Shown piece by piece: positions 4,989 through 32,429 of a DNA stretch of 64,000 nt. The position numbers were made by a program, and so were the translations under genes. The notes beneath the pieces are model-generated. The model was given only the letters and a program-made list of their open reading frames with translations. It was not told the origin of the DNA and did no database searches. Every line of letters begins with the position of its first letter. Positions within the stretch are counted from its first letter, which is position 1. This stretch comes from Chiloscyllium plagiosum. Its lineage: Eukaryota. The stretch lies in NCBI RefSeq assembly GCF_004010195.1, contig NC_057746.1, positions 6,889,747-6,953,746 of the forward strand, read 5' to 3'.

Positions 4989-5056
4989 CACCCAGGGTCC
5001 CTTCCCACAGCATGTACCTCCCCATTCTCACCCAGGGTCCCTTCCCACAGCATGTA
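4989..5056. repeat. About 40-bp tandem repeat running into a gap (intron after the TM exon)
   Basis: cacccagggtcccttcccacagcatgta occurs twice, 40 bp apart, immediately before the Ns. Confidence 0.7.
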
Positions 5057-5343: not shown

Positions 5344-5416
5344 ATGACAGCAACAATTAGCAGGAGAGCAACGACAATACCGATTTTAACCGGGAGCTTG
5401 GAGCTGCTCTTTGGTT
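5344..5416 (-). CDS. UAA: MHC class I heavy chain exon 5 (connecting peptide/transmembrane), cut by an assembly gap
   Basis: ttctcttccag acceptor, then phase-1 (E)PKSSSKLPVKIGIVVALLLIVAV running into Ns; the phase matches the exon 4 donor. Confidence 0.85.
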
Positions 5417-5525
5417 CTGGAAGAGAATTATCCAACAAGAGACAGTCACACATCAGCAATCCAACAGAGTATACACTGGACAGGGACACACTCGCAGCCC
5501 CCTGGCTGCTGAGACACAGACAGAT

Positions 5526-6335: not shown

Positions 6336-6449
6336 GTCAGAATTCAGCCAAAATCAGAGTGGTGCTGGAAAAGCACAGCAGGTCAAGTAGCATCTGAGGA
6401 TCAGGAAAATCAATGTTTCAGGCAAATGCCCTTCACCTGGATATCATTT

Positions 6450-11570: not shown

Positions 11571-11590
11571 TCACTGAGGAAAATCCTTAC

Positions 11591-11854
11591 CATAAAAGAC
11601 GACCAGCTTCTGCCCCAATCCATTGTGTTCCACCTCGCAGGAATACTTGGCCTGGGAATGTGGGTCAAACTCCATCCGTTTGCTGATCTGGTAGGATCCA
11701 TCGTGATTGGGTCGGATTCCAGTCGATTGTAATTCATCAATCTTCACTCCATCCCGGAACAGATTCACTTCAATGGCCTGAGGGTAGAAGCCAGTGGCGA
11801 AACAGGAGAGATCTTTATTTTCCCTCACAGGGGTCAGTGTTACAGAGGGTTTAA
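11591..11854 (-). CDS. UAA: MHC class I heavy chain exon 4 (alpha3, C1-set Ig domain)
   Basis: VKPSVTLTPVRENKDLSCFATGFYPQAIEV...PNHDGSYQI...YSCEVEHNGLGQKLVVFY; 264 bp; (TC)n-cag acceptor and gtaagg donor. Confidence 0.95.
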
Positions 11855-12011
11855 CTGGGAGAGAGAGAGAGTGAGAGAGAGAGAGAGTGAGGGAGAGAGA
11901 GGTTAGACAGGGACACAGAGACTCTCAACCCCTCACCCCCACTCACCATCCCTCCTCACCCACCCCATCCCTTCCTCCTCCCGCTCGACCTCTCTCTCTC
12001 TATCTGATTAC

Positions 12012-12284
12012 CTGGTTTCAGTTCTTTCTCTCCATACTGAAGGTATTTTTTCAGCCATTCAATACACTCCTGCTCCAGGTAACCCTTCTTCTGTTTGTTT
12101 AATCCTGAGTCCTTGTCCCATTTATTTTTGGTGCTCTCCCCCCAGCTTACAGGGGTCACCCACACCATCCTGTCCTTGTCAAAGCTGATGAAATCCCGTC
12201 CATCCCAGCCGTGCTGATGAAACCCGCTGATGGGGACATTATCTTGGAGCTCACAGCCGTATACCAGCTGGTAGGTGTGGATCC
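12012..12284 (-). CDS. UAA: MHC class I heavy chain exon 3 (alpha2)
   Basis: GIHTYQLVYGCELQDNVPISGFHQHGWDGRDFISFDKDRMVWVTPVSWGESTKNKWDKDSGLNKQKKGYLEQECIEWLKKYLQYGEKELKP; 273 bp; cag/gtaat splice sites; both Cys plus T143, K146, W147, Y159 and Y171 present. Confidence 0.95.
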
Positions 12285-12304
12285 CTGTGGATCACAGAGA
12301 GAGA

Positions 12305-12765
12305 GAGAGAGAGCCAATTACAGGGGGGATTCACACATAGAGAGCCAATCACAGGGAGGGATCACCCACAGAGCCAATCACAGGGAGGTATCTCACACAG
12401 ACAGGGACCGTCAATCACACAGAGGGATCACACGTTGAGAACCAATCACATGGAGGGATCATGCAGACAGAGTCAATCACAGGTAGGGAATCACACACAC
12501 AGAACCAATCACAGGGAGGGATCTCACACAGAGAACTAATCACAGGGAAGGATCACACACACACAGGGACCGCCAATCACATGATATTTTAACAGTGGAG
12601 TGTCTCATTAATACCTGAAATAAACCATAGAAAAACTCTCAGCATCTTCCTTTTTCTGAAGACACTATGATACAGAATGTAATATAAGGCCATTAAAGAT
12701 GTCACACTCACAGAGCCAATCACAGGGAGGGATCACACACAGAGAGCCAATCACAGCCCCCACCC
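12305..12765. repeat. Degenerate about 30-bp CCAAT-containing repeat in MHC-I intron 2
   Basis: agagccaatcacagggagggatcacacac repeated about 9 times (12305-12582) and twice more (12710-12765). Confidence 0.85.
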
Positions 12766-12815
12766 CCAAAGGATCACCCCCTCCCTCCGCAGGGGGTGAC
12801 CCCCTAGTCACTTAC

Positions 12816-13076
12816 CCCTGGTCTGGTTGGTCCTCTCCATTAGCGTCTGGATAGCGACCTTTCCCGACGACTCCCAGCCCCGCAGTTTCTGTGTGTTCTG
12901 ATCCCAGTAATCAGCTGCCACATTCTTCGTGATCCAACGCTGCCGAGGGGTGTACTGCTGGATCTTACTATCATAGTAAACAAACTGCTGATCATCCACA
13001 TAACCCACATCAGTGTACTCAGGGAATTCCGACAAGGAACTGACGGCAGTGTGCAGGTATCGCAGGGAGTGAGTCA
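12816..13076 (-). CDS. UAA: MHC class I heavy chain exon 2 (alpha1), classical UAA-like
   Basis: (V)THSLRYLHT...GYVDDQQFVYYDS...PRQRW...DYWDQNTQ...MERTNQTR; tttcag acceptor and gtaagt donor; 261 bp; Y7, Y59, R84 and the N86 sequon (NQT) are present. Confidence 0.95.
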
Positions 13077-13134
13077 CTGAAATAAAACACAGGCACAGGT
13101 CATCCTCTCCAGGCTCGGCCCGAGATTCAATTCA

Positions 13135-14105
13135 CCAATAAATACACCCCAAAATACAGAGCTCCTTGTAAATAAACCCTAAAACACAGGGCCCCATGTA
13201 AATAAACCCTAAAACACAGTGTACACTATAAATAAACCCTAAAACAGACAGCCCCCTGTAAATAAACCCTAAAACACAGGGCCCCCTGTAAATAAACCCT
13301 AAAACACAGAGCTCCCTGTAAATAAACCCTAAAACACAGGGCCCCCTGTAAATAAACCCTAAAACCCAGGGCCCCCTGTAAATAAACCCTAAAACACAGG
13401 GCCCCCTGTAAATAAACCCCAAAACACAGGGCCCCCTGTAAATAAATCCTAAAACACAGGGCCCCCTGTAAATAAACCCTAAAACACAGGGCCCCCTGTA
13501 AATAGACCCCAAAACACAGAGCCCCCTGTAAATAAACCCTAAAACACAGGGCCCTCTGTAAATAATCCCTAAAACACAGGGCCCCCTGTAAATAAACCCT
13601 AAAACACAGAGCCCCCTGTAAATAAACCCTAAAACACAGAGCCCCCTGTAAATAATCCCTAAAACACAGGGCCCCCTGTAAATAAACCCTAAAACACTGA
13701 GCCCCCTGTAAATAATCCCTAAAACACAGGGCCCCCTGTAAATAATCCCTAAAACACAGGGTCCCCTGTAAATAAACCCTAAAACACAGGGCCCCCTGTA
13801 AATAATCCCTAAAACACAGGGCCCCCTGTAAATAAACCCCAAAACACAGAGCCCCCTGTAAATAATCCCTAAAACACAGGGCCCCCTGTAAATAATCCCT
13901 AAAACACAGGGCCCCCTGTAAATAAACCCCAAAACACAGAGCCCCCTGTAAATAATCCCTAAAACACAGGGCCCCCTCCAAATAATCCCTAAAACACAGG
14001 GCCCCCTGTAAATAAACCCTAAAACACAGGGCCCCCTGTAAATAAACCCTAAAACACAGGGCCCCCTGTAAATAAACCCTAAAACACAGAGCTCCCTGTA
14101 AATAG
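13135..14105. repeat. 30-bp minisatellite (about 32 copies) at the 3' end of MHC-I intron 1
   Basis: Unit gtaaataaaccctaaaacacagggccccct in perfect 30-bp register. Confidence 0.97.
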
Positions 14106-14534
14106 ACCCCGATACTGAGCCCGCAGACACACTGTGTGAAGCAGGGACCCCAGCGATCAGTGGCCCAGTGTGAAGCCTGTGTACAGCCAAGGGTCAGACC
14201 ATGTGGAGACCCCCCGGTGCTGATCAGCTACAGAGATCCCTCAGAGACAGTCATGTTTGTATTATAACATGCCTTCTTGTTTTTCTGACCTGTAGTTATA
14301 CTTTGTATCGCTGTAATGTACCTTTTTCTTCTTCATTCTTTTTATTCCATAACTAAGGAACATCCCTCAATACTTTGTCTGTAAGATAGTAGTCAGCTGG
14401 TGATATCATTGCACTGTAACCAATGTAAAGCTGAATAAACTGTACATTGTACCTAAAATGGCGCTCTAAGTGGTGACCTATCAACTTTGCATTGAATTGA
14501 GAACATATGACAATAAAACTAATTCAATTCAATA

Positions 14535-14835
14535 CATTTATCACTGGGCTATTAGTCTGGAGACTCTCATAATGTCCTGGGGACACAGGTTCGAATCGAA
14601 GCCCAGCAGATGGTGGAATGTGCATCTGTAGAATCTGGAATTAAGTGTGTATCAATGACCACAAATCCATTATTAGGAAAAGCTCATCAGGTTCACTAAT
14701 GTCCTTTAGGGAAGGAAATCTACCTTCCTTACCTCCCCTACATGTGACTCCAGACCCACAGTAATGTGGTTTACTCTTCACTGCCCTGTGGGCAATGCAG
14801 GCCCAGTCAGAAATACCCACATTCTGTGAGTGAAT
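14535..14835 (+). mobile_element. Second tRNA-derived SINE family; copies at 23385-23680 and 38120-38840
   Basis: ggttcgaatc B-box and shared core ggttcactaatgtcctttagggaaggaaa...tgtgactccagacccacag. Confidence 0.65.
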
Positions 14836-16739
14836 ATAATTATGTAATAAAAATCATACTTTAAAAATATTATTAGAAAAATGAAATGTTCCCTGTGAAA
14901 TTCAGACCTTTTCAAGTGAGTGAGGTATGTGGAACAGATTTCAAATCGTGAATAATCAGAAATCACTGAGTTGAGTTGAATTTGAAAACCTGGCTGCTCT
15001 CACAATGGTGCTGGTGGATTTGAAACGTTAACATTTTGGTCCTTCTTTAACTTGCTGTATGCACGATGTAGCAAATCCCTCTTGTCAGGCCATAACCAGA
15101 ATAGAGGCAAGTAAATGGGATGGTTATGAGCAACCAATTCAGCTGCAGACAGTGGGTGAGCCGGGGAACTGTTTGTAACATGTGCCTCGATAATAAAAAT
15201 GTTGGGAACCACTGCCCTGATGAAATAGTGTTATTTATCTCCAGGGACAGCATACAATGGGATGGAGTTATATTCCATCTGTACAGACCCTGTTCAGACT
15301 ACAGCTGGAGAACTATGTTCAGTTCTGCACACTGCAGCTCAGGGAGGAGGTGCTGGCCTGGGAGGGAGTGCAGCGTACAGTCACCTTAATGTGCTTGGAA
15401 ATTAAATGGTTAAATTCAGAGGGTCTGTAATCCTTTCATTGAGAAGATTGGGGTGAGTGAATGGAAGGGTTTAAAATATGAATGATACTATATTCCCAAA
15501 ACTGAAGTGAACAACTGAGCATGTAATTCCAACTTAACTTTACCCCATCTCACCTCCACCTGCTCCTGAAACCTTCATTCTGGAGACGACTATTCCGAAG
15601 GCCTCCTGACTGGAATCTCACAGTTCACCCTCCAATTCACCCCAGCTCCAGTTGAAATACACCCAACCCCAACTCCCCCATTCCCCCATCTCCCATCTCC
15701 TGCTCATTGACCTCCACTGGCTCCTGGTCAAACAACAACACCATTTTATATTTTTATACTTGTTTTCAAGTCCCTTTGTGACCTTCCCCCCTCCCCCACC
15801 CCCGAGTCTCTATCATTTCTTACAAACCCACAACCCTTTCAGAGACCACTTCAACAACTCTCCCTCTTGCTGCACCCTCAGCTATCAAAGGCCCAGTCTA
15901 GGGAATTCCTTCCCTAAACCTCTCCGTCTCTCCAGCTCACCTTCCACCTTTCAGGCCTACCATTTAACTCCCCTCTTTGACCTTAGAATAGAATCCCCTA
16001 TTGTGTGGAAACAGGCCTTTCGGCCCAACAAGTCTAAACCGACCCTCCAAAGAGTAACTCACTCACACACATCCCCCTACTGTATTACTCCTATATTTAC
16101 TCCTGATCAATGCATCTAACCTACACATCCCTGAACACTATGGGCAATTTAGCATGACCAATTCACCCAACCTGCACATCTTTGGACTGTGGGAGGAAAC
16201 CAGAGCACCTGGAGGAAACCTACGCAGACACGGGGAAAATGTGCAAAATCCACACAGACAGTTGCCCAAGGCTGGAATTGAACCCAGGACCCTGGTACTG
16301 TGAGGTAGCAGCACGAAACACTGAGCCACCCTGTCTGAACATCTTCTTGTGGGGCTCAATGTCTGACTATTTTATAACAATCCCAAGAGGAACTTTCAAC
16401 ACAGGTTTCAGATCCAGAGGAACTACTCCCTCTGCTGGGAGCAGACATAACCGGTGACATAATCTGAACATTAACCCTCGACTGTTCAGGAGAGGAATCA
16501 GGAAACAGTTACTCACACATTCTCCTCACAAAGCTGGAGAAACTGGGGAATAATTGCAGTTTTTGGTACAGAAGGATATAGGCTTTTACAAAAAAAAACT
16601 GCAGATTTTGGAAATCTGAATCCAAATTGAAAGTGCTGGAAATCCCTAGTAGCTTTGTTTGTCTGTGTGAAGAGAAAAGCAGTTGGTATTTCTGGGCAAT
16701 GATCGATGATCAACCTGTGACTGCTGTTCCCTCTCTATA

Positions 16740-16945
16740 ATGTGGAGGAGCCGGTGTTGGACTGGGGTGGACACTGTTAAAATCACACAACACCAGGTTA
16801 TAGTCCAACAGATTTATTTGGAAGCACTAGCTTTTGGAGCGCTGCTCCTTCATCAGATAGCTGTGAAGCAGGTTCAGAAGACACAGAATTTATAGCTAAA
16901 GGTTACAGTGTCATGCAGCTGAAATGATATATTGAACAAACCAGG
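16740..16945 (-). mobile_element. Family-2 hammerhead short repeat; related copies at 25737-25925, 27362-27790 and 35155-35210
   Basis: Minus strand CTGATGA-A-GGAGC-AGC-GCTCC-(A/G)AAAG-CTA at 16856-16828; shared flank aaaatcacacaacaccaggttatagtccaacag. Confidence 0.65.
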
Positions 16946-17279
16946 AGATTGAGCAAAGCTGGGGAATGAGTGACAGGTCAGCTCTGATCGAATTGGACAT
17001 TGGTGGGACTGACTGGAGGGAACAAACCTTTGTTGACCCCTCTCTCCACCCTCAGCACACTCATTCTCAGACCCTAACATCAACTCTCTTTCTACTGTCT
17101 CATCACCCTAAGCCCCTCACCCACACACCATCTCTCTCCCTCCAGCCTCATCACTCTGTCCCTCAGTCACCTACACAGTCTCCCAGTCTCTCTCACCAGC
17201 CCCTGATCCCAGTGTCAACTTACCCCCAACCAGTTCTTATTGTCTGTTTCTTTCCCCACTCCAGCACTAAGGCCCTTTC

Positions 17280-17480
17280 TGACCCCACTGACCTGGGGTT
17301 AATGCCCCAATACCCAGTCTGGTATTGAGACCCTCTCTGTGCCCATTACCCACTGACTGAGGATTAATGCCCAGTACACAGCCTGACACTGAGACCCTCT
17401 CTGTGCCCATTACCCACTGACCAAGTGTTAATGCTCCAATACCCACACTGACACTGAGATCCCCTCTATGCCCATTACTC
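17280..17480. repeat. About 60-bp tandem repeat (3-3.5 copies) at the start of intron 1; also at 26260-26460
   Basis: cccactgac...ttaatgcccaatacccag...tgagaccctctctgtgcccattac repeated. Confidence 0.75.
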
Positions 17481-17482
17481 AC

Positions 17483-17534
17483 CTGCAGATGCCCCTCCAC
17501 ACAGAAGGATGAGAAGTATGAGTCTCATCATCAT
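17483..17534 (-). CDS. MHC class I heavy chain exon 1 (leader), copy A, proximal
   Basis: Minus strand reads MMMRLILLILLCGGASA+G, then donor gtgagt (phase 1). Joins exon 2 in frame (G+TG = Val). Not in the ORF track. Confidence 0.85.
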
Positions 17535-18082
17535 TATTATTTTCCTTCTCCGAGGTTGAAGAACAGTCTGTATTCACTGCTTTTGAAAGAGTTGATCTTG
17601 GAGCTGGACAGATGCTGCCATTCTCCTGCTCTGCCTCTCTCTGTGTGTGCTCCAACCCAGAGCTCCACCCTAGTCCAATACCAGCTCCGTCATGTGAAAC
17701 AGACATGACAAAAACCAGGAAGTGCTGCTAAAAATTTATAAAATCTTGTTTTGTCTCTGGCTGGAGGATTGTGTTCTGTTCTAGGCCCTCCCATTTCAGG
17801 AGAGGGGTAAAGGCCTTACAGAGAGTGTGGACAGTTATTTGGATGATACACTGGGTGAAGGATACATTTCTGATCATACTCCAGCAAGGAGGGGTCACAC
17901 TGAAGGAGCTTTACAGAGGATGGTGTCAGGACAGGAGAGTGTTAATAATGAGGGAAGATCTACATTCAAACAGAGGAGACGAATGGGAGATTTATTGAGG
18001 GTTATAAAATCAGAATGGGACCCCCACAGAGAGCGAGGAAGGACATTTCTACATACATATTGGAGTTGGCCACTCCACCCCT

Positions 18083-18176
18083 CAAATCCTGATGAAGGGC
18101 TTAAGCCCGAAATATCGACTCTCCTGCTGCTCAGATGCTGCCTGACCTGCTGTGCTTTCCCAGCACCACTCTCTCA
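18083..18176 (+). ncRNA. Minimal hammerhead-ribozyme motif in a short repeat (family 1)
   Basis: CTGATGA-A-GGGC-TTAA-GCCC-GAAA-T-ATC at 18089-18116; paralogous degenerate copy at 31720-31760. Confidence 0.6.
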
Positions 18177-18959
18177 ACAAGAACGTACTTCATCTTCAAT
18201 GGACATATTCAAGGATCTCGGGAAGAGAGTTCCAAACATTCATGGACCTCGGAGGGAATGGTTTGCCATATTTTTGTTTTGAATGAGCAAGTCCTTACTT
18301 TTAAACAGTGACTCCCTATTTCTAGACTCTCCCACAAGAGAGCACACCCTTTCTACACCTGCCCTGTCAAGAGACCTCAATATCGAACATGTTTCAATCA
18401 AGTTGTCTCTTACACTTTGAAACTGCATGTCTCCCCTGTCCAACCTTATGTCATAAGGNNNNNNNNNNNNNNNNNNNNNNNNNNNNNNNNNNNNNNNNNN
18501 NNNNNNNNNNNNNNNNNNNNNNNNNNNNNNNNNNNNNNNNNNNNNNNNNNNNNNNNNNNNNNNNNNNNNNNNNNNNNNNNNNNNNNNNNNNNNNNNNNNN
18601 NNNNNNNNNNNNNNNNNNNNNNNNNNNNNNNNNNNNNNNNNNNNNNNNNNNNNNNNNNNNNNNNNNNNNNNNNNNNNNNNNNNNNNNNNNNNNNNNNNNN
18701 NNNNNNNNNNNNNNNNNNNNNNNNNNNNNNNNNNNNNNNNNNNNNNNNNNNNNNNNNNNNNNNNNNNNNNNNNNNNNNNNNNNNNNNNNNNNNNNNNNNN
18801 NNNNNNNNNNNNNNNNNNNNNNNNNNNNNNNNNNNNNNNNNNNNNNNNNNNNNNNNNNNNNNNNNNNNNNNNNNNNNNNNNNNNNNNNNNNNNNNNNNNN
18901 NNNNNNNNNNNNNNNNNNNNNNNNNNNNNNNNNNNNNNNNNNNNNNNNNNNNNNNNNNA

Positions 18960-21900
18960 CACAGGGATCCCTGTAAATAAACCCCAAAATGAAGAGCCCC
19001 CTGTAAATAAACTCTAAAACACAGGGCCCCCTGGAAATAAACCCTAAAACCCAGACTCCTGTAATAAACCCTAAAACACAGAGCCCATTGAAAATAAATC
19101 CTAAAACACAGAGCTCCCAGTAAATAATCCCTTAAATGCAGATCACCCGGTAAATAAACCCAAAAACACAGGGCCCTGTAAATAAACTCTGAAACACAGA
19201 GCACCCTGTAAATAAACCCCAAAATACAGAGCCCGCATTAATAAACCCTAAAATGCAGAGCCCCCTGTAAATAAACCCCAAAACACAGGGCCCCCTGTAA
19301 ATAAACCCTAAAACACAGGGCCCCCTGTAAATAAACCACAAAACACAGAACACCCTGAAAATAAACCCTAAAACACAGGGCCCACTGTAAATAAACCCTA
19401 AAATGCAGAGCCCCCTGTAAATAAACCCCAAAACACAGGGCCCACTGTAAATAAACCCCAAAACACAGGGCCCACTGTAAATAAACCCGAAAACACAGGG
19501 CCCACTGTAAATAAACCCGAAAACACAGAGCCCACTGTAAATAAACCCGAAAACACAGAGCCCACTGTAAATAAACCCCAAAACACAGGGCCCACTGTAA
19601 ATAAACCCCAAAACACAGGGACCCTGTAAATAAATCCTGAAACACAGAGCTCCCTGTAAATAATCTGTAAATGTAGAGCCCCTGTAAATATACCCTAAAA
19701 CACGAAGCCCCCTGTTAATAATCCCTAAAACACACAGCCTCCTATAAATAAACCCTAAAAAGCAGGGCTCCCTGTAAATAAACCCTAAAACACATGGTCC
19801 CCTGTAAATAAACCCGAAAACAGAGCTTCCTGTAAATAAACTCTGAAACACAGAGCACCCTGTAAATAAACCCCAAAATGCAGAGCCCCCTGTAAATAAA
19901 CTGAAAAATACATAGCCCCCTGTAAATAATCCCTAAAACACAGGATCCCCTGTAAATAAACCCTAAAACACAGAGCCCCCTGTAAATAAACCCGAAAACA
20001 GAGCTTCCTGTAAATAAACTCTGAAACACAGAGCACCCTGTAAATAAACCCCAAAATACAGAGCCCGCATTAATAAACCCTAAAATGCAGAGCCCCCTGT
20101 AAATAAACCCCAAAACACAGGGCCCACTGTAAATAAACCCCAAAACACAGGGCCCNNNNNNNNNNNNNNNNNNNNNNNNNNNNNNNNNNNNNNNNNNNNN
20201 NNNNNNNNNNNNNNNNNNNNNNNNNNNNNNNNNNNNNNNNNNNNNNNNNNNNNNNNNNNNNNNNNNNNNNNNNNNNNNNNNNNNNNNNNNNNNNNNNNNN
20301 NNNNNNNNNNNNNNNNNNNNNNNNNNNNNNNNNNNNNNNNNNNNNNNNNNNNNNNNNNNNNNNNNNNNNNNNNNNNNNNNNNNNNNNNNNNNNNNNNNNN
20401 NNNNNNNNNNNNNNNNNNNNNNNNNNNNNNNNNNNNNNNNNNNNNNNNNNNNNNNNNNNNNNNNNNNNNNNNNNNNNNNNNNNNNNNNNNNNNNNNNNNN
20501 NNNNNNNNNNNNNNNNNNNNNNNNNNNNNNNNNNNNNNNNNNNNNNNNNNNNNNNNNNNNNNNNNNNNNNNGTGTTGCTGGAAAAGCGCAGCAGGTCAAG
20601 CAGCATCCAAGGAGCAGGAGAATCGATGTTTCGAGCATGAGCCCTTCTTCAGGAAAACACAGAAGCCCCCTGTAAATAAACCCTAAAACCCAGGGCCCTG
20701 TAAATAAATCCTGAAAAACACAGCCCCCTGTAAATAATCCCTAAAATACAGGGCCCTGTGGAAACAAACCAGAAAACTCCCTGTAAAAAAAACCCTAAAA
20801 ACACACAACCCCTGTAAATAAACGCTGAAACACAGGGTCCTTTAGAAATGAACACTAAAATACAGGGCTCCCTGGAACTACATCTGAAAAAACAGGGCTC
20901 CCTTGAAATAAACACTTAAAACACAGGCCCCCCCCCCCGTAAAAAAACGAAAACCCAGAGCCCTGTAAATACACCCGAAAACGCACCGTCCCCTGTAAAT
21001 ACACCCGAAAACGCACCGTCCCCTGTAAATACACCCGAAAACGCACCGTCCCCTGTAAATAAACGCTGAAACACAGGGTCCTTTGGAAATGAACACAAAA
21101 ATACAGGGCACCCTGTAACTACATCCGAACAAACAGGGCTCCCTTGAAATAAACCCTTAAAACACAGGGCCCCCTGTAAATAAACCCGAAAACCCATTGC
21201 CGCCTATAAATAATCCCTAAAACACAGTCCCCTGTAAATAAAAGCTAAAATAAACAGCCCCCTGTAAATAATCCCTAAAACACACAGTCCCCTGTAAATA
21301 ATCCCTAAAACCACAGGGCCCTGTGTAAATAAACCCTAAAACACACAGTCCCCTGTAAATAAAGCCTAAAACACAGAGCCCGCTGTAAATAATCCCTAAA
21401 ATACAGGGCCCTGTGGAAACAAACCAGAAAACTCCCTGTAAAAAAAACCCTAAAAACACACAACCCCTGTAAATAAACGCTGAAACACAGGGTCCTTTAG
21501 AAATGAACACTAAAATACAGGGCCCCCTGGAACTACATCCGAACAAACAGGGCTCCCTTGAAATAAACCCTTAAAACACAGGGCCCCCCCGTACATAAAG
21601 CCAAAAACCCAGGGCCACCTGCAAATAATCCCTAAAACACACAGCCCCGAGTAAATAAACGCAAAAACACACAGCCCCCTGGAAATAATCCCAAAACATA
21701 GGGCCTTGTGTAAATAAACCCTAAAACACAGTCCCCTGTAAATAAACCCCAAAACACAGAGCCACCTGGAAACAAACCCGAAAACCCAGGGCCCCCTGTT
21801 TAAAAAAAACCCTAAATGCAGAGCCCCCTGTAAATAAACCCTAGGTGTGGACTTGTAGGGCCGAAGGGCCTGTTTCCACACTGTAAGTAATCTAAATCTA

Positions 21901-22945
21901 AATCTAAAATGCAGAGCCCCCTGTAAATAAACCCAAAGACACAGGAATTCCTGGAAATAAACCATAAAACCCAGGGCCCTGTAATAAACCCAGGTTCCCC
22001 TGTCAATAATCCCTAAAACACAGAAACCACTGTAAATAATCCCTAAAACACAGGTCCCCCTGTCAATAATCTATAAAACACACAGCCCCCAGTAAATAAC
22101 CCCTAAAACACAGAACCCCCTGTAAATTATCACTAAAACACAGAGCTCCCTGTAAATAAACCCTAAAATACAGAGCCTCCTGTAAATAATTCCTAAAACA
22201 CAGGGTCCCTTGTAAATAATCCCGAAAACACAGCTTCCTGTAACGAATCCTAAGAACATAATGCCACTTGTAAGTAAACCCTAAAACACAGGGCACCCGT
22301 AAATAACCCCTAAATCACAGAACCCCCTCTAAATAATCCCTAAAACATAGAGCCCCCTGTAAATAAACCCTAAAACCACAGAACCCCCTGTAAATAAACC
22401 CTAAAAACAAGGGTGTCCTGTGAATAAACACTAAAACACAGGGCCCTCTGTAAAATAAATCCGAAAACACAGGGCCCCCTGGAAATACACCCTTAAACCA
22501 CAGGACCCTTGTAAATATACCCTAAAACACAGGGCTCCCTGTAAATAAACCCTAAAACACAGGGCTCCCTGTAAATAAACCATAAAACACACAACTTGCT
22601 GTTAGTAAACAATAAAACACAGAGTTCCCTGTAAATACACCCTAAAAAAAAGAAAGACCCCAGTAAATAAACCCTAAAACACAAGTGCGCCCTGTAAATA
22701 ATCCCTAAAACACACAACTCCCAGTAAAATAAACCCTAAAACACAGAGCTCCCTGTAAATACACCCTAAAAAAGAAAGCCCCCAGTAAATAAACCCTAAA
22801 ACATGGGGCACCTGTAAATAAACCCTAAAATACAGAGCCCCTTGTAAAAAAAATCGTAAAACTCAGAGCCCTCAGTAAATTAAACCCCAAAACACAGAGC
22901 TCCCTGTAAAAAACCCTAAAACACAGAGCTCCCTGTAAATAGACC
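18960..22945. repeat. Second, longer and more degenerate array of the same 30-bp minisatellite
   Basis: Same unit with many indels; spans a gap; ends in the same unique flank (aatagaccccgatactga...) as 14101. Confidence 0.95.
20572..20654 (-). mobile_element. Family-1 hammerhead short repeat inside the minisatellite
   Basis: Minus strand cCTGAAGAagggctcatgctcGAAACATC plus the family tail. Confidence 0.7.
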
Positions 22946-25900
22946 CCGATACTGAACCCGCAGACACACTGTGTGAAGCAGGGACCCCAGCGATCAGTGG
23001 CCCAGTGTGAAGCCTGTGTACAGCCAAGGGTCAGACCATGTGGAGACCCCCCCGGTGCTGATCAGCTGCAGAGATCTCTTAGAGAGACTCTGATGTTTGT
23101 CTTATAACTTTCCTGCTTGTTTTTCTGACCTGTAGTTATACTTTGTATCGCTGTAATGTACCTTTTTTATCTTCATTCTTTTTATTCCATAACTAAGGAA
23201 CATCCCTCAACCCTCTGTACCTAAGATGGCGGTGTGATGGTGACATCGTTGCACTGTAACTAATGTGTAACTGAATAAACTGTACCTTGTACCTTTAAAC
23301 CCAAGATGGTGCTGTAAATGGTGACCTCTCAACTTTGCATTGAATTGAGAACATATGACAATAAAACTCATCCAATTCAATTCATTTATCACTGGGCTAT
23401 TAGTCTGGAGACTCTCATAATGTCCTGGGGACACAGTTTCGAATCGAAGCCCAGCAGATGGTGGAATGTGCTTCTGTAGAATCTGGAATTAAGTGTGTAT
23501 CAATGACCACAAATCCATTATTAGGAAAAGCCCATCAGGTTCACTAATGTCCTTTAGGGAAGGAAATCTACCTTCCTTACCTCCCCTACATGTGACTCCA
23601 GACCCACAGTAATGTGGTTTACTCTTCACTGCCCTGTGGGTAATGCAGGCTAAGTCAGAGATACCCACATTCTGTGAGCGAATATAATTATGTAATAAAA
23701 ATCATACTTTAAAAAAATATTATTAGAAAAATGAAATGTTCCCTGTGAAATTCAGACCCTTTCAAGTGAGTGAGGTATGTGGAACAGATTTCAAATCGTG
23801 AATAATTAGAAATCACTGAGTTGAGTTGAATTTGAAAACCTGGCTGCTCTCACAATGGTGCTGGTGGATTTGAAACGTTAACATTTTGATCCTTCTTTAA
23901 CTTGCTGTATGCACGATGTAGCAAATCCCTCTTATCAGGCCATAACCAGAATAGAGGCAAGTTAATGGGATGGTTATGAGCAACCAATTCAGCTGCAGAC
24001 AGTGGGTGAGCCGGGGAACTGTTTGTAACATGTGCCTCGATAATGAAAATGTTGGGAACCACTGCCCTGATGAAATATAGTGTTATTTATCTCCAGGGAC
24101 AGCATACAACGGGATGGAGTTATATTCCATCTGTACAGACCCTGTTCAGACTACAGCTGGAGAACTATGTTCAGTTCTGCACACTGCAGCTCAGGGAGGA
24201 GGTGCTGGCCTGGGAGGGAGTGCAGCGTACAGTCACCTTAATGTGCTTGGAAATTAAATGGTTAAATTCGGAGGGGAGATTATTTTAACTTGGCCTGTAA
24301 TCCTTTCATTGAAAAGATTCAGGTGAATGAATGGAAGGGTTTAAAATATGAATAATACCATGGGCACAGTGGTTAGCACTGCTGCCTCACAGCGCTCGAG
24401 ACCCGGGTTCGATTCCCGCCTCAAGCGACTGACTGTGTGGAGTTTGCACGTTCTCCCCGTGTCTGCGTGGGTTTCCTCCGGGTGCTCCGGTTTCCGCCCA
24501 CAGTCCAAAGATGTGCAGGTCAGGTGAATTGGACATGCTAAATTGCCCGTAGTGTTAGGTAAGGGGTAAATGTAGGGGTATGGGTGGGTTGCGCTTCGGC
24601 GNNNNNNNNNNNNNNNNNNNNNNNNNNNNNNNNNNNNNNNNNNNNNNNNNNNNNNNNNNNNNNNNNNNNNNNNNNNNNNNNNNNNNNNNNNNNNNNNNNN
24701 NNNNNNNNNCCCCCCCCTCCGAGTCTCTATCATTTCTTACAAACCCACAATCCTCTCAGAGACCGCTTCAACAACCCTCCCTCTTGTGGCACCCTCAGCT
24801 ATCAAGGGCCCAGTCTGGGGAATTTCTTCCCTAAACCTCTCCGTCTCTCCAGCTCACCTTCCACCTTTCAGACCCTTCAATCAACTCCTCTCTTTGACCT
24901 TAGAATAGAATCCCCTATTGTGTGGAAACAGGCCTTTCAGCCCAACAAGTCTATACCGACCCTCCAAAGAGTAACTCACTCACACACATCCCCCTACCAT
25001 ATTACTCCTATATTTACCCCTGACCAATGCATCTAACCTACACATCCCTGAACACTGTGGGTAATTTAGCATGGCCAATTCACCTGACCCACATATGTTT
25101 GGATTGTGGGAGGAAACAGGAGCACCAGGAGGAAACCCACGCAGACACAGGGAAAATGTGCAAAATCCACACAGTCACCCGGGGCTGGAATCGAACCCAA
25201 GTCCTTGGAGCTGTGAGGCAACAGTGCTAACCACTAATGCCCGAAACGTCGATTCTCCTGTTCCCTACATGCTGCCTGACCTGCTGCGCTTTTCCAGCAA
25301 CACATTTCCAACTCAGCCACCATGCCAACCTGTCTGAGTATCTTCTCATTTGGCTCAATGTCAGACTTTATAACAATCCCGAGAGGAACTTTCAACACGG
25401 GTTTCAGATCCAGAGGAACTACTCCCTCTGCTGGGAGCAGACATAACCAGTGACATAATCTGAACATGAAACCTGGTGTGTTCAGGAGAGAAACCAGGAA
25501 ACAGTTACTCACACATTCTCCTCACAAAGCTGGAGATACTGGGGAATAATTGCAGTTTTTGGTACAGAAGGATATAGGCTTTTACAAAACAAAACTGCGG
25601 ATTTTGGAAATCTGAATCCAAATTGAAAGTGCTGGAAATCCCTAGTAGCTTTGTTTGTTTGTGTGAAGAGAAAAGCAGTTGGTATTTCTGGGCAATGATC
25701 GATGATCAACCTGTGACTGCTGTTCCCTCTCTATAATGTGGAGGAGCCGGTGCAAGACTGGGGTGGATACTGTTAAAATCACACAACACCAGGTCCAACA
25801 GATTTATTTGGAAGCACTAGCTTTCAGAGCGCTGCTCCTTCACCAGGCAGTTGTGAAGCAGGATCAGAATTTATAGCAAAAGGTTACAGTGTCATGCAGC

Positions 25901-26645
25901 TGAAATGATATATTAGACAAACCAGGAGATTGAGCAAAGCTGGGGAATGAGCGACAGACCAGCTCTGATCTAATTGGACATTGGTGGGACTGACTGGAGG
26001 GAACGAACCTTTGTTGACCCCTCTCTCCACCCTCAGCACACTCATTCTCAGACCCTAACATCAACTCTCTTTCTACTGTCTCATCACCCTAAGCCCCTCA
26101 CCCACACACCATCTCTCTCCCTCCAGCCTCATCACTCTGTCCCTCAGTCACCTACACAGTCTCCCAGTCTCTCTCACCAGCCCCCGATCCCAGTGTCAAC
26201 TTATCCCCAACCAGTTCTTATTATCTGTTTCTTTCCCCACTCCAGCACTAAGGCCCTTTCTGACCCCACTGACCTGGGGTTAATGCCCCAATACCCAGTC
26301 TGGTATTGAGACCCTCTCTGTGCCCATTACCCACTGATTGAGGATTAATGCCCAGTACACAGCTTGACAATGAGACCCTCTCTGTGCCCATTACCCACTG
26401 ACCAAGTGTTAATGCCCCAATACCCAGACTGGCACTGAGATCCCCTCTATGCCCATTACTCACCTGCAGATGCCCCTCCACACAGGAGGACGAGAAGTAT
26501 GAGTCTCATCATCATTATTATTTTCCTTCTCCGAGGTTGAAGAACAGTCTGTAGTCACTGTTTTTGAAAGAGTTGATCTTGGAGCTGGATAGATGCTGCC
26601 AGTCTCCTGCTCTGCCCCTCTCTGTCTGTGCTCTGACCCAGAGCT
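22920..26645. repeat. Segmental duplicate of 14080-17664 (MHC-I intron 1, exon 1 and 5' flank)
   Basis: Colinear high identity with scattered substitutions and copy-specific insertions; homology ends at cccagagct (17664/26645) and resumes at 18083-18458 versus 31720-32031. Confidence 0.93.
26464..26515 (-). CDS. MHC class I exon 1 (leader), copy B, distal
   Basis: MMMRLILLVLLCGGASA+G then gtgagt; one amino-acid difference from copy A; lies in the duplicated intron-1 block. Confidence 0.85.
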
Positions 26646-26803
26646 GGTGAAATTAACATCAAATCCTCCTTACTGATTGGACACTGCTCACCCACTGAGC
26701 CAATGAGAATAGGAACAGCCTCTAAGTCAGCAGTTTCCGGGTAGAACACTCCTGGGCAGGTTGAGTTTGTCTCGAAATAAACTTGAAAAGTACAGAGAAC
26801 CAT

Positions 26804-26893
26804 CCAATCAGAGAAACGCTGTAACCCACATCACCAGTTACCGGGGAGAATAAACTGAGGCAGGTTTGAGAATCAAAGGAGAAACTGAAAGTG
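26804..26893 (-). promoter_or_regulatory. MHC class I promoter: ISRE plus S-X1/X2-Y module
   Basis: Minus strand: ISRE CACTTTCAGTTTCTC (26893-26879), S-like AAACCT (26867-26862), 16 bp spacer, X CCCGGTAACTGGTG(ATGT) (26845-26832), 20 bp spacer, Y CTGATTGG (26811-26804). Extra CCAAT boxes at about 26676 and 26700. Confidence 0.85.
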
Positions 26894-29488
26894 ATTTGAT
26901 ACAGAACAGGGGGAGGTCATTCAGCCCCTCTGGCCCTACTACACCTTTCCAGCTGATCCTGGCTGCTCAGTATGAGACCCATTTACCCATCTTTATCCTG
27001 ACTCCCCTCAGACCCTAACCCAATAAAAATTAATCCCACTCCGTCTTCCACTCTCTCTCTGTCCCAATGTGCCCAGTCTCCTGACGGGTGACAGTGATTG
27101 ATAGCTGTAATCCTGGGCGTAAAAACACTATCTATCTCTGGGTAAAAACAATGACTGCAGATGCTGGAAACCAGAGTCTAGATTAGAGTGGTGCTGGAAA
27201 AGCCCAGCAGTTTGTCTGCCTGAACTGCTGTGCTTTTCCAGCACCACTCTAATCTACACTCTGTGTCTATCTCTGACCCATTGAATCCAAGTGAACAATA
27301 CAGACAATTTGATTAGATCACCCCCGACAGTCTACACTCTGGGAAACTGAGTTCATACTTTATAATGTGAGACAAAGTTAAAAATCACACAACACCAGGT
27401 TATAATCCAACAGGTTTATTTGGAAGCACTAGCTTTCGGAGCACTGCTCCTTTGTCAGGTGCTAGTGGGGCAGGATCATAGGACACAGAATTTATAGCAA
27501 AAGATCATAGTGTCATAAACTGATGCGATATATTGAACAAACCTAGACTGCTGTTAAATCTTACATTTTTTTAGAACGGGTTGCAGGTTTCAATTCATTA
27601 ATTATACGTAAATCACAGAACTTCCTTTATAATCCACATGACATTTTATAAATTCCAACTTTGGAAATAGAACCAGTCTGACTCAAGGTTGGAATACAGA
27701 CAGACTCTAACCTCACACCTTTAAGGCATTGTCTGAGCTGAGATGTCACTTTCTTTTAAATCAAACCTTAAGTTATGAACATGACTGGGATTCCCGACAG
27801 TGTGGAAACAGGCCATTTGGCCCATCAAGTCCAAACCAATCCTCCAAAGAGTAAACCCCCCCCAACCCAATCCCCTACACTTATCCCTGACTAATGCAAT
27901 TTAGTATGGCCTGCACATCTTTGGATTGTGGGAGGAAACCCAAGCAGACAATGTGCAAACTCCACACATTCAGTGGCCTGAGGCAGGAATCAAACCTAGG
28001 TCCCTGGCACTACAAGGCAGCAGTGCTAACCACTGAGCCACAGTGCCACCCAATCATTGTATCATCTCTACATTTAGCTATCATACCTTCTAAGTAATTT
28101 CTATTATTTGCAAACAGTTGAGGTTGTAGCACTACTTCCTGTGGCACACCAGTTGTTACATCTTGCTAACCGAACAGTGACCCATTTATTGTTCCTGTCT
28201 GCTTCTTATCAGGCAGCCAATCCGCTACCTCGGCCAATCTGTTATCACCTGCACCATTATCTATTATTTTTTCAATAATCTTTCATGTAGCTTCATATCA
28301 AATGCCTTCTGGAAACTGAAGTACAGTTCATCCACTGGGTCACCTTTATCCACAGCAGGTCTTTAATAATAACTTCAAACATCTCCCTATGTCCGAAGTG
28401 AAGCTGACTGGCGTGTAGTTTCCTGTTTTCTGGGTCCCTCCTTTACCTGAATAAAGGAGATACGTGTGCTATCTTACAATTGATCGGGACTTTCCCAAAT
28501 CTAGGGAATTTTAGAGAAGTAAAATCAACAAATCAACTATTAATTAAACAAATAGGTTTGGGCTGCGATGGGAAAAATTTAAAAGGGACCGAAGGGGCAA
28601 CCTCTTCACACAGAGGGTGGTGCGTGTATGGAATGAGCTGCCAGAGGAAGTGGTGGAGGCTGGTACAAGTACAACATTTAAAAGGCACCTGGAAGGCAAT
28701 ATGAACAGTAAGGGTTTAGAGGGATATGGGCCAAGTGCTGGCAAATGAGACTAGATTAGGTTAGGATATCTGGTCGACATGGACTATATGGAGTGAAGGG
28801 TCTGTTTCCATGCCATACATCTCTATGACTCTATCTATGACTCTATAAAATACTACACAGGCTGGAAATCTAATACAAACACAGAAATTGCTGGAGAAAC
28901 TCAACAGATCTGGCTGCATCTGTGGCCCTGACCCAACGTTTTGAATTGTCTCTTTCCACAGGAGAGGTGCAGAGGACTGGAGGACAGCTAAAGTGGTTCC
29001 TCTTTACACAACGGGTGGTATAGGTAGACCAGGGGACCAGTGAGCCTCACATCAGTGGGAGGGAAGCAACTGGAGAAAATAGTGAAGGAAAAAATTAATC
29101 TCCATTTAAAGAGGCAATGTTTGATCGGGGAAAGAACAGCTTAGCTTTGTCAGAGGGAGGTCATGCCTAACAATTCTGGTGAAATTTTTCGAGAATGTGA
29201 CCATGATGTAGATGAGGGTAGAGCAGTTGATGTAGTTCATATCAATTTCAGCAAGGCCTTTGACAAGATCCCACATGGGAGACTGATAAAGGAGGGAAAA
29301 ACTTATAGCAACTTAGCAAGATTGATCCAAAATAGGCTTTTTTTATAGGAGACAGAGGTTGGGGGTAGAGATCTATTTCTACAATGAGAGCCTGGTGTGC
29401 AGTGGGGTACCATCGAGATCAGTGCTGGATCCCTCCTTGTTTGTGATATTCAGAAATTAGGATTGATGGAGGGTGGGAGAGCTGATAG

Positions 29489-30103
29489 TGTAATGGACCA
29501 GACCAAACCCCCTCTAAATATCTGAGGACAATAGCCCAGACCTTACCATTTTCTTATTTTAAAGGCAAGTGCCAGGCAGTGCATTCTGGATACAATTCTA
29601 TTGGTCAAGCTACCAGCAAAACACATTCTATTCATACACAATAGTTAAAATACAGCAAAAGAAAGAATCAGAATAACTCATTGGAAAACATAACAGATTA
29701 ATAGAAACTTTAATGATAAACATTAACTGTTCCAATATAGTAACATGCCATAAACACACCCTTGGCAAAGGCAAATTCAGTAAAACAGATTGTCCAACAG
29801 ACAATTCTAGCAGCAGGGAGAGAACCCTAGCTTTTAGTTGTAATAGAGGAATAAGCTTCTGCATCTAACTTTAAGGTCACAGCAAGCGCTTCTGAAAGTT
29901 AAAACTAAAAAAATTCTGGTTCTGCCAGAGCTTGACCCCACCCATCTAGGTTGCTTCTATTGTTCCAACTTTTAAAAAAATTCCAAGGCCTCACAAGCTG
30001 TTTAGTTTATTGGCTTTGGAGCAGAAAACTCTCCACCTCTCTGTCAACCTTTCCTTATTTAAGAAAGGACAATATACACCTCTTAAAGCCATAGTATCAT
30101 CAC
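29489..30103 (-). mobile_element. Solo LTR related to 46170-47158, inserted in a CR1; a shorter relative at about 39340-39685
   Basis: Begins tgtaatggaccagacc (compare tgttatggaccaggcc) and ends gtatcatcac; CR1 RT sequence resumes on both sides. Confidence 0.65.
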
Positions 30104-30389
30104 TATTAGTTTGTGGAAGATTGATTGAGTGGCAGACAGTGAGAAGGAAGCTGGTAGCTTACAGGAAGATATAACCTATCAGGTCACTGGCAGATCAGTG
30201 GTAGATGGAATTTAACCCTGAAGAGCGTGAGGTGTAGCACTTAGAACAAACAAACAAAGAGGTACTCAAGGGACACTAGGAAGTTGAGAAGAACAGATGG
30301 ATGTTGGGTTGCCTGTCCACAGATCCCAGAAGACGACAGGACAGGGTTAATAGAGTAGTTACGAAGGTATATGGGACACTTGCTTTTAG

Positions 30390-30519
30390 CAGGAGAAAGT
30401 GAGGACTGCAGATGCTGGAGATCAGAGTCGAGAGTGTGGTGCTGGAAAAGCACAGCAGGTCAGGCAGCATCCGAGCAGCAGGAGAATCGATGTTTCGGGC
30501 ATAAGCTCTTCATTAGGAA
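30390..30519 (-). mobile_element. Family-1 hammerhead short element with a 12-bp TSD, inside CR1
   Basis: TSD acttgcttttag at 30378-89/30520-31; core mutated to CTAATGA. Confidence 0.8.
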
Positions 30520-32429
30520 ACTTGCTTTTAGTAGTCAAGACGTAGATAGTAGGAGATTAGATCGGAGAGTCAGAACTTTGGTTAGGTCACAATTAAAAAG
30601 AAACAGAAATTGGTGGAGAAACTCAGAGTGTGTGGGAACAAAGCAGAGTTAATATTTCCCATCCAATGATGCTTCATCAGAGCTGATGTTTTGCACCCAC
30701 TTTATTTTAGTTAGGTCACAGCTAGAGTACTGTGTGTAGTTCTGGTCACTGCATTATATGAAAGATGTGATTGCGCTGGAGAGGGTGCGAAGGAGATTCC
30801 CTGAGATGGAGCCTGAGATGGAGCATTCCAGCAATGAAGAGAGGCCGGAGAAACTGGAGCTGTTTCCTGTGGAGCAGAGAAGGCTGAGAGGGGACCTGAT
30901 GGAGGTGTACAAAATTATGAGGGGCATGTACAGGGTGAATACAGAGCAGCTGTTCCCCTTAGTCAAAGGGTCAATAACAAGGAGACATAATTATAAACTG
31001 AGAGGCAGGAGCTTTAGTTGGGATTGTAGGAAAATCATTTGCATCCAGATGGTGTTGAGGTGTAGAATGCACTGCTTGGGAGGGAAGATGAGGTGGGAAA
31101 TCTCTAAACATACTTGAATCTGCACTTGATGTGTCATAACATTCAGGGCTATGGGACTCGTGCAGCAGTGTTGGAATAGTATAGGTAGTGGTATATTTTT
31201 GGTGGTATAGAAATGATGGGCCAAAGGGTCATCTGTACTGTATGATTCAATGATTCTATGAGCGAAACAGTTAACATTTCAAGTCCAGTATCATTCTGCT
31301 TCAGAAAAAAAATACTTTACATCAGAGGCTGTTGCTAGGCAATGGCAGCATACATTCCAAGCCATCCGTCCAAATAGTTTTAACTATTAATTCATGAAAT
31401 CATAGCTGTTCTCACAATCTAAAAACTCTGAGACCTCTTGATATAACATCATCTGATTTGTCATTAAGTGGAAAATAATTCACAGTGCTTCTTTATATTT
31501 TGACTTTCCAGTTCCCAGGACAACACGTGATTAATCCACTTCAATGCAGAAATGTCCATGTTCCAGCTTTAAATTCTAAAAATAATCCTGTGTTCCCACC
31601 AGAAGACCATTCTGCCCCTCAAACTTGCCCTGTCTTTCAATAAGGATCATAGATGAACCTCAAATCTGTATTCCCACCTACTTCTGGTAAACTTTCATCA
31701 CTTGCTCAAGAAGAATGTGCAAATCCTGATGAAGGGCTTAAGCCCAAAATATTGACTCTCCGTACTTCACCTTCAATGGACATATTCAAGGATTTCGGGA
31801 AGACAGTTCCAAACATTCATGGATCTCAGAATGTTTTGGAGTATTTTTGTTTTGAATGAGCAAGTCCTTACTTTTAAACAGTGACTCCCTATTTCTAGAC
31901 TCTCCCACAAGAGAGCACACCCTTTCTATACCTACCCTGTCAAGAGACCTCAAAATCTTACATGTTTCAATCAAGTTGTCTCTTACACTTTGAAACTGCA
32001 TGTCTACCCTGTCCAACCTTATGTCATAAGGCAACCTGGGGAACTTTCTAGGGACACTGGGAAAAGAGTAGGCCATTCAGCCCCTCAAACCTGTTTCGCC
32101 TTCGATGAGATTACAGCTGATCTGTGGGCTATTCAGAATACCTGCCCATATCCCTTAATACCTTTGCTTAACAGAACATCTCAGATTTAAAATGAACAAC
32201 TGATCAAGTATACACTCATGTTTGTGAAGAGAGTTCCAACCATCTACCTTTTATGAATATTTCTCAGCAAACTACTGCTGTCTCCCATACACCATACGCC
32301 AGAACATTCTGCATCCTGCCTTACCCCAACCCTGCATCCTGCCTCACTCCAACCCTGTGTGAGTAAAAGTATAATTAATGGGTCGTGTTGTCAAACAGGG
32401 AGTCCGAGGCGTTCAGGTTTAGAATTGTG

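Follow-up and report, generated by a model that had tools for sequence, protein, structure and literature searches.

A conserved class Ia-like gene with a putatively old loss of its ISRE-SXY promoter beside a promoter-bearing relative in the bamboo shark Chiloscyllium plagiosum

The 64,000 nucleotides of Chiloscyllium plagiosum DNA analysed here (the window) probably hold parts of two MHC class I genes of the UAA lineage, both on the minus strand: gene B, which would be the dominant one and whose body is missing, and gene A, which is conserved, lacks an SXY promoter and would encode a minor, near-monomorphic molecule. The sequence of A is that of a conserved class Ia-like gene from which the SXY promoter was apparently lost long ago, and a minor near-monomorphic class I molecule is its most likely product. 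The features of the locus are as follows, in window coordinates.

5344-5416, minus strand: exon 5 of gene A (connecting peptide/transmembrane), interrupted by an N gap; tblastn with P0001, AG acceptor
6451-11563: 52-bp minisatellite in intron 4 of gene A, 99 copies (TRF)
11591-11854, minus strand: exon 4 of gene A, alpha3 (C1-set); tblastn, splice sites, Pfam
12012-12284, minus strand: exon 3 of gene A, alpha2; tblastn, splice sites, Pfam
12816-13076, minus strand: exon 2 of gene A, alpha1; tblastn, splice sites
13139-14109: 30-bp array at the 3′ end of A intron 1, immediately before exon 2, 32 copies (TRF)
14110-17482, minus strand: A intron 1, about 95% identical to B intron 1 (alignment)
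17483-17534, minus strand: leader exon A (coding part), donor intact; used by the public model P0001
17535-17664, minus strand: A 5′ UTR and start region, common to B (8 of 130 bases differ)
17665-18082: filler of 418 bp where the promoter would be; weak matches to common repeats only
18083-18458: upstream block common to A and B (31720-32031 in B)
18459-18958: 500-N gap, one of three with exactly 500 N
18969-22946: 30-bp array closing B intron 1 (TRF)
22947-26463, minus strand: B intron 1, with a SINE (24363-24600), a gap (24602-24709) and an 86-bp insert (25238-25323)
26464-26515, minus strand: leader exon B (coding part), matching the P0009 leader at 16 of 16 residues
26516-26645, minus strand: B 5′ UTR and start region; B letter at 26561 (17580 in A) in 11 of 11 RNA reads
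26646-31719: B-specific 5,074 bp (promoter and repeats), without counterpart in A
26676-26704: further CCAAT boxes of B
26804-26890, minus strand: candidate ISRE-S-X-Y module of B; motif match only
31720-32031: upstream block common to B and A (18083-18458 in A)

Gene A encodes an MHC class I heavy chain (Pfam MHC_I 6.6e-50, C1-set 5e-16), with leader, alpha1, alpha2, alpha3 and transmembrane exons separated by phase-1 GT-AG introns; an N gap masks the transmembrane end and the cytoplasmic exons. Its protein is the public Chiloscyllium plagiosum model P0001, and its alpha exons are the single set found in the window by tblastn with 12 shark class I proteins. The exon 2 of B would be expected directly after the array at 18969-22946, where the gap lies. 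We read this 500-N gap as a scaffold join whose true length is not fixed by the N count; because it lies between A and B, their order and distance in the window are not fixed either.

The first-pass annotation had described a duplicated leader exon with a common intron 1 and about 130 bp in common upstream of the ATG, and our alignments bear this out. The leaders (17534-17483 in A, 26515-26464 in B) differ at 2 of 52 bases (17505/26486 and 17510/26491) and have an identical GT donor; intron 1 differs at 62 of 1382 aligned bases (14110-15491), 55 of 528 (15793-16324) and 50 of 1140 (16325-17482), and homology extends into the 30-bp array that ends the intron in both copies. Upstream, the copies diverge at 17664/26645 and homology returns at 18083/31720, exactly as annotated, with 15 of 271 bases differing in 18184-18458. 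What had been called repeat debris in place of about 5 kb of B measures 418 bp against 5,074 bp, and the two segments have no match at word size 7. The common upstream block opens in A with a short repeat, and the left flanking duplication survives in B only. Both insertions assigned to B are present: the SINE is not a clean one, because a 108-N gap adjoins it and the opposite stretch of A, about 300 bp (15492-15792), has no visible counterpart, and the 86-bp insert is a truncated piece of a common repeat, its hammerhead label being unconfirmed by Rfam, which gave no match at gathering score in 14000-32100.

Gene B carries, as had been proposed, a candidate ISRE-SXY module, with an ISRE-type motif at 26881-26890 followed by S (26868-26862), 16 bp, X (26845-26832), 20 bp and Y (26811-26804), and this is the only such module in the window. 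The motifs were matched to ISRE, S, X and Y consensus strings, and the module conforms to the spacing given in PMC4374748, where 16 bp separate S from X and 20-22 bp separate X from Y. The whole piece that holds A (3000-18458, with only 924 bp of contig upstream of the A ATG) contains no such module and no ISRE or Y-box match. The first 80 bp of the filler contain TATA-, ETS-, CCAAT- and half-CRE-like words, which were rejected as a promoter because they are short, and the CCAAT was discounted because it sits in a 24-bp repeat-end match (E 0.022). As far as the ISRE-SXY module goes, the earlier statement that A has lost its promoter is correct; yet A is no decaying copy, because its alpha1 and alpha2 domains are nearly invariant across three species.

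Orthologues of A come from two other hemiscylliid sharks. Over 177 alpha1/alpha2 residues, P0004 has 4 differences from P0001 and P0005, a Hemiscyllium model with an irregular leader-alpha1 junction, has 10; the sister-type proteins P0009, P0010 and P0011 differ among themselves at 32, 64 and 69 of 177. An A-type protein occurs in all four hemiscylliid gene sets of the cluster, two C. punctatum entries have identical alpha1/alpha2, and by these figures, which compare species and one pair of entries, A does not have the high alpha1/alpha2 polymorphism of a class Ia gene. The termini of peptides bound by class Ia molecules are anchored by Y7, Y59, R/Y84, T143, K146, W147, Y159 and Y171, and all eight residues are present in P0001, P0004 and P0005, as in 6LUP. 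The sister type differs from A by 27-58% in alpha1/alpha2; in alpha3, A shares 89-90% identity with the sister Ia-type genes and at most 65% with any other shark class I group analysed.

Domain trees, built by a quick method from few columns with 60 or 58 of 72 rows, place the A orthologues in a clade of their own for alpha1 (99) and alpha2 (97), and with the hemiscylliid sister type and nurse shark UAA/NC1 for alpha3 (8 rows, 98). In the alpha1 tree P0011, published as a 'class IA' cDNA of this species, joins sequences from Heterodontus and Mustelus at 100; because it lacks Y59 and W147, any assignment of alleles to B is tentative. Within species, A and the sister gene share leader residue 9 and alpha3 residues 207, 214 and 261, and since leader residue 9 is Ile in A where same-species cDNAs show a Val/Phe pattern, gene conversion is not complete. 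By protein-model locations, P0004 and P0009 lie on one sequence of 81,297,441 bases, and P0005 and P0010 on one of 49,326,738 bases. On the 35-Mb sequence, no full-length sister-type model appears among the best 120 of 670 matches, and none of 10 matches to shorter sister-type fragments is named for Chiloscyllium plagiosum.

We compared reads and contigs with positions 16340-18458 for four of the 24 matching runs (X1, X9, X16 and X21). Both A junctions are spanned by DNA contigs, that at 17664 in X1 (17550-17833, 1 other letter) and X16 (17623-17834, 8 other letters and 24 gap letters), and that at 18083 in X1 (17932-18114) and X16 (17938-18147). The same junctions are thus present in DNA from a further sample and from a second species, in which 88 of 1759 bases of the non-coding pieces differ; X1 and X16 also carry B-type intron letters. 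Contig depths in X1, which do not equate to copy number, are 5.5 and 4.8 at the A junctions, 9.3-9.9 in the intron and 10.3 in the middle of the filler.

The joining of leader to exon 2, which the first-pass annotation had singled out for a check in RNA, is answered in part. In X9, whose RNA-like status is a guess, no matching run being on record as RNA, the leader is covered and the unique intron bins are not, and in all four contigs listed with a loose end at 17483 that end is another exon 2, reading VSGSLRYF where A has VTHSLRYL and differing at 7 of 23 letters. In X21 every one of 11 RNA reads has the B letter at 17580, the sole informative 5′ UTR site shown; A-type leader RNA at that site amounts to 0 of 11 reads (upper bound about 24%). 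All X9 depth at 17580 is likewise B-type, so that B-type expression dominates in both runs. X21 RNA depth is zero upstream of about 17690, with no reads in 17689-18043; X9 has a trace depth of 0.85 in the bin 17689-17759 and zero at 17657 and 17662. Indirect evidence suggests that the body of A is transcribed: in X9 the share of the words of 11575-13130 is 0.35, where alpha3 alone could account for about 0.15 and all exons for 0.46; the types of the runs compared are given as 'DNA?' or 'RNA? guess'. The RNA-guess runs X23 and X24 hold next to none of these words and were left out of the evidence. At 17223, a single X21 read and a B-like X1 contig carry the A letter; therefore, not every A/B difference is locus-specific. 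RNA letters present in neither window copy occur at 17541, 17567 and 17570, and 7 of 11 reads lack 3 bases at 17533.

Three arrangements had been put forward in the first-pass annotation, and the one that fares best is that of two tandem class I paralogues with the exons of B unassembled, which is supported by the A orthologues, the sister protein on the same sequences, the recurring junctions and the RNA. A single gene transcribed from B and spliced onto exon 2 of A is contradicted in its simple form by the X9 leader contigs, which enter a different exon 2. We give a low probability to a modified form, in which the paralogues are real, the A mRNA is a read-through from the ISRE-SXY of B with the B leader spliced past the B body onto A exon 2, and the A leader is a passenger kept by gene conversion. 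One promoter and leader would then serve two bodies by alternative splicing, mostly the variable classical one and at a low rate the invariant downstream one. Such splicing would accommodate a conserved A body with words in the RNA-like run yet no A-type 5′ UTR letter, the assembly's placement of B on the 5′ side of A and in the same orientation, and the irregular junction of P0005; however, the B poly(A) site would have to be bypassed, the order of B and A depends on the 500-N join, the leader and donor of A are intact, the four contigs with a loose end at the donor lead elsewhere, and 11 reads are too few to argue against a minor A leader. If it were true, a monomorphic class I molecule would be tied to classical output as a reporter of class I transcription for NK-like cells, with no need of its own promoter.

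That A is silent, a promoterless duplicate whose reading frame survives by chance or conversion, appears improbable. The missing ISRE and Y box and the 0 of 11 A-type reads agree with silence, but the two Chiloscyllium species differ at 4 of 177 residues against about 19 expected under neutrality (a rough figure, its non-coding yardstick of 88/1759 being assumed to fit this pair), and conversion is not what maintains alpha1/alpha2, because these domains are so different from the sister type. The remaining arrangement of the annotation, two ancient allelic haplotypes of one locus put in tandem by scaffolding, is unlikely: A and B do lie on separate pieces bordered by 500-N gaps, alpha1 lineages are common across shark orders, as with P0011, and the A-junction contigs of X1 have about half the intron depth, as if A were on one haplotype only, but the filler middle stands at B-type intron depth in the same run, the A junctions recur in a second species, and the A-type protein is found in all four hemiscylliid gene sets of the cluster, with identical alpha1/alpha2 in the two C. 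punctatum entries. Both protein types also lie on one chromosome-scale sequence in each of the two other species examined, a placement that argues against haplotig duplication. Least probable is a reading of B as a third paralogue or as an orphan fragment with promoter and leader, the expressed leaders coming from a further copy outside the window. The RNA letters seen in neither copy and the lack of a sister-type model among the matches described above would suit this origin; against it, the stray letters behave like alleles, making up only some of the X1 and X9 depth, the gene sets of the two other species each show only two genes of the A/sister alpha3 clade, and B stops exactly in the array that precedes exon 2.

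Under the two-gene reading that we prefer, B would represent the front of the variable, dominantly expressed gene, from promoter and leader to intron 1, with a contig that stops in the 30-bp array and alpha exons that lie outside the window. A would be a duplicate that arose in, or was homogenised within, the bamboo and epaulette shark family, and that after duplication shed about 5 kb, from a break lying immediately upstream of the common start region, and with it the ISRE, S, X, Y and CCAAT boxes. It would have retained a fixed peptide-binding domain after the promoter was lost, while leader, intron 1 and alpha3 were kept alike between A and B, probably through gene conversion. We expect that A would be made at a low level, independent of NLRC5 and interferon, from a residual start region of its own, and that, paired with beta2m, it would bind a narrow range of peptides and would serve NK-like or innate-like T cells in the manner of chicken BF1 or HLA-E/G.

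In many non-mammalian vertebrates a single dominant class I gene is accompanied by minor neighbours, and how the latter come to be turned down is known mainly from birds and mammals. A and B would provide a clean case in a cartilaginous fish, in which a breakpoint common to two species removes the whole ISRE-SXY region from a gene with a nearly fixed groove and all anchors. They would also form a matched promoter pair for asking whether sharks control class I through NLRC5 and interferon, and A is a candidate invariant ligand of shark NK-like cells. The annotated class I model at this locus probably does not represent the classical gene, the body of which appears absent from this part of the assembly. 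A literature search that reached few subscription papers returned no account of the A lineage or of class I promoter loss in sharks; minor class I genes with promoter defects are already known in ducks and mammals.

Nurse shark UAA (PDB 6LUP) and UAA-NC1 (P0012), the latter reportedly described by Ohta et al. in 2002, share with A the alpha3 clade and the identical eight anchor residues. Orthology of A with NC1 was ruled out, as identity is 55% in alpha1, 71% in alpha2 and 74% in alpha3 and the two stand apart in all three trees. Like A, the elasmobranch 'MHC-Ia-like' genes are extra UAA-related genes close to a single bona fide class Ia gene, in species-dependent copy number; the accessible part of PMC10751288 presents them as unpublished data, without promoter or bamboo shark analysis (Chiloscyllium has no match in one supplement), and with zinc-finger genes around them, of which none is seen in this window. 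Shark UDA, UEA and UBA resemble A as conserved class I genes of the shark MHC, but are ancient lineages in separate clusters according to the same part of that source. HLA-G and opossum UK/UF/UM, as far as the available portions of PMC3987962 and PMC1351924 describe them, are low-polymorphism or non-classical class I genes without working SXY/ISRE, as is A; HLA-G retains degenerate elements and has mapped alternative control regions, of which none is known for A. In the excerpts of PMC10845735 and PMC9586880, duck UBA, UCA and UEA beside the dominant UAA, and chicken BF1 beside BF2, are lower-expressed minor neighbours, the duck minors having promoter defects and BF1 having fewer alleles and a reported role as an NK ligand. 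These pairs parallel A and B in joining a dominant class I gene to a weaker minor neighbour, whereas A has had its ISRE-SXY region replaced entirely and its groove hardly varies among three species.

The class I locus is oriented on the minus strand and comprises one gene body within the window, that of gene A, and two copies of the leader exon. The exons are located as follows:

26515-26464, minus strand: leader exon B, upstream of the gene body
17534-17483, minus strand: leader exon A, upstream of the gene body
13076-12816, minus strand: gene A exon 2, GT-AG sites
12284-12012, minus strand: gene A exon 3, GT-AG sites
11854-11591, minus strand: gene A exon 4, GT-AG sites
from 5416, running into a gap, minus strand: gene A exon 5, GT-AG sites

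The two leaders differ at 2 of 52 bases, and A and B also share intron 1, the 130 bp that precede the ATG and a block at 18083-18458 (A) and 31720-32031 (B). Divergence in the common blocks is ~4-6%, and 10% in one SINE-rich block. Both leaders begin with three in-frame ATGs (17526-17534); their number is polymorphic, since 7 of 11 reads of the single-cell RNA run X21 and contigs of the DNA read runs X1 and X16 carry a 3-base deletion at this site. The window is split by three gaps, each of exactly 500 N (at 2500, 18459 and 37596), which we read as scaffold joins. Large minisatellites of 52 bp (6451-11563) and 30 bp (13139-14109) lie on either side of the alpha1-alpha3 exon block; they break assemblies and could delimit conversion tracts. 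Positions 1-465 and 5872-6335 (intron 4 of A) differ at 15 of 462 bases, similar to the divergence between A and B. The copy at the window start lies beyond another 500-N gap and may represent the partner gene's intron 4 in a downstream position, or merely another repeat copy. Elsewhere in the window, 45782-48741 and 48736-51696 form a head-to-tail duplication of ~2,960 bp (98.5% identity) with a broken reverse-transcriptase piece, either a recent event or an assembly echo. A further gene lies on the piece past the third 500-N gap:

60270-62417, plus strand: rhodopsin-family GPCR gene (7tm_1, E 2.6e-21 for 61488-62414), its short first exon probably near 60270

Between the common blocks, A carries a filler of 418 bp and B a segment of 5,074 bp, with no mutual similarity. 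B's segment contains an ISRE-type motif together with S, X and Y boxes at spacings of 16 and 20 bp, called by motif strings that we take to define this module. It is the sole such module within the window, and none was found on A's piece. The spacing of the S, X and Y boxes matches that given for NLRC5 targets in an excerpt of PMC4374748. The upstream common block opens with a short repeat, which has a 13-base near-duplicate on its right in A and on its left in B. A's filler starts at the left edge of this repeat, so that B's arrangement would be the older and A's the derived one, judging from this one junction.

Searching read runs with 11575-13130 retrieved 24 runs, which are thus selected for holding that sequence; at least half of its words occur in 8 of the 24, from six samples of organism A (a label unrelated to gene A). 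Reads of four runs were compared over 16340-18458. Both X1 (organism A) and X16 (organism B, a second species) yield DNA contigs across both filler junctions, which rules out an assembly chimera as the source of the promoter replacement. The replacement in A is therefore older than the separation from this second species, whose non-coding pieces are ~5% divergent (88 of 1759 bases). B-type intron letters are also present in contigs of X1 and X16. A result against reading A and B as paralogues is that the junction contigs reach about half the depth of the intron contigs in X1, although the filler is at full depth in its middle and depth is not a copy number.

The alpha1 domain of gene A is 100% identical to the public model P0001 (Chiloscyllium plagiosum according to its source), which uses leader A. 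P0001 clusters at 90% with three other entries, two from C. punctatum and one from Hemiscyllium ocellatum, giving four members in all. Of 177 alpha1/alpha2 residues, 4 and 10 are changed relative to P0001 in the full-length orthologues; by a rough yardstick, ~19 of 177 changes are expected without selection where 4 are seen. All eight positions that we take to be the peptide-anchor residues, compared with the nurse shark UAA structure 6LUP, are kept in A orthologues. The tail of P0001 after the start of TM is unlike that of its orthologues and is probably an artefact of the gap 5057-5343. At residues 26, 41 and 59 of P0001, presumably groove-floor positions ~9, 24 and 45 in HLA numbering, the A orthologues and Pristiophorus P0002 have His, Asp and Tyr in common, a set of residues that may lock in an acidic B pocket.

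A sister type, comprising P0009 (C. punctatum), P0010 (Hemiscyllium) and the C. plagiosum cDNAs P0011 and P0125, shares the leader with A and matches it by 89-90% in alpha3, 42-52% in alpha1 and 67-73% in alpha2. It is highly variable (32-69 of 177 residues differ). In quick domain trees of 86-91 columns (60, 60 and 58 of 72 aligned rows, near-duplicates and partial rows dropped), A orthologues are separate in alpha1 and alpha2 and fall within the UAA clade in alpha3; A and nurse shark NC1 do not group together. The sequence closest to A's alpha1 comes from Pristiophorus (60%, support 89, unstarred), a hint that the duplicate A has preserved an old alpha1 lineage in frozen form. Leader and alpha3 residues are shared within species between the two genes, a pattern suggesting that the flanks are kept alike by conversion as the grooves grow apart. 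P0011, deposited as 'MHC class IA' of this species, has F59 and L147, as does P0125; its alpha1 groups with Heterodontus and Mustelus sequences (support 100) and is an old lineage, possibly not the classical allele type. That this cDNA, published as class IA, is without two anchors counts against our main reading and leaves a tentative allele set for B.

Run X9, labelled 'DNA?', behaves as RNA, with a depth of 3,600-6,100 on the leader and zero depth in intron bins that are unique. The loose end that it shows at the leader donor is a different exon 2, the same in all four contigs (7 of 23 letters differ), and a search for this exon 2 across the window found it absent. X21, a raw single-cell run of which 2% was read, carries B's letter at 17580 in 11 of 11 reads and has none within 17689-18043; the small number of intron reads in it match B at 7 of the 8 A/B sites shown. 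Position 17573 is uninformative, being G in all X1 contigs. RNA depth fades at ~17620-17690 with no sharp start called, placing the breakpoint close to the start region. We consider it fairly probable that B is the front part of a dominant UAA-type gene and that A is a minor, near-invariant paralogue, which would be transcribed weakly without NLRC5 or interferon control and would present a narrow peptide set. A result against this reading is that no A-type leader RNA was seen in the RNA reads examined. One promoter common to both genes, with A fed by read-through splicing, is unlikely. Somewhat less likely again is a silent A. Of the words in the exon 2-4 stretch, X9 contains a share of 0.35 (alpha3 alone, ~0.15), and the share is 0.27-0.34 in five further runs that are small or RNA-guess; protein conservation is a stronger argument for expression of A than these word shares.

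That A and B are neighbours depends on the gap between them, which also counts against the main reading. Two haplotypes placed in tandem would be an improbable account; in C. punctatum and Hemiscyllium, the A type and the sister type lie on the same chromosome-scale sequence. That B is an orphan or third copy appears slightly more doubtful still. Some UTR letters in the RNA match neither copy in the window, a further result against the main reading. A 30-bp array ends B's piece, and the same array sits directly before exon 2 in A. The feature is real, in part an assembly effect (the missing body of B) and in part biology (the old promoter loss and conserved groove of A).

In the literature searched, which omits much shark MHC work, no account of A's lineage or of its promoter loss was found. 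An excerpt of PMC10751288 mentions, as unpublished data, that sharks have additional class Ia-like genes next to their one class Ia gene, and passages of PMC6523485 give general background only. Among known systems, as described in extracts of the respective sources, duck minor class I genes have promoter defects (PMC10845735), BF1 has lower expression and less variation and serves mainly as an NK ligand (PMC9586880), and HLA-G and opossum class I genes are without a working SXY (PMC3987962, PMC1351924).
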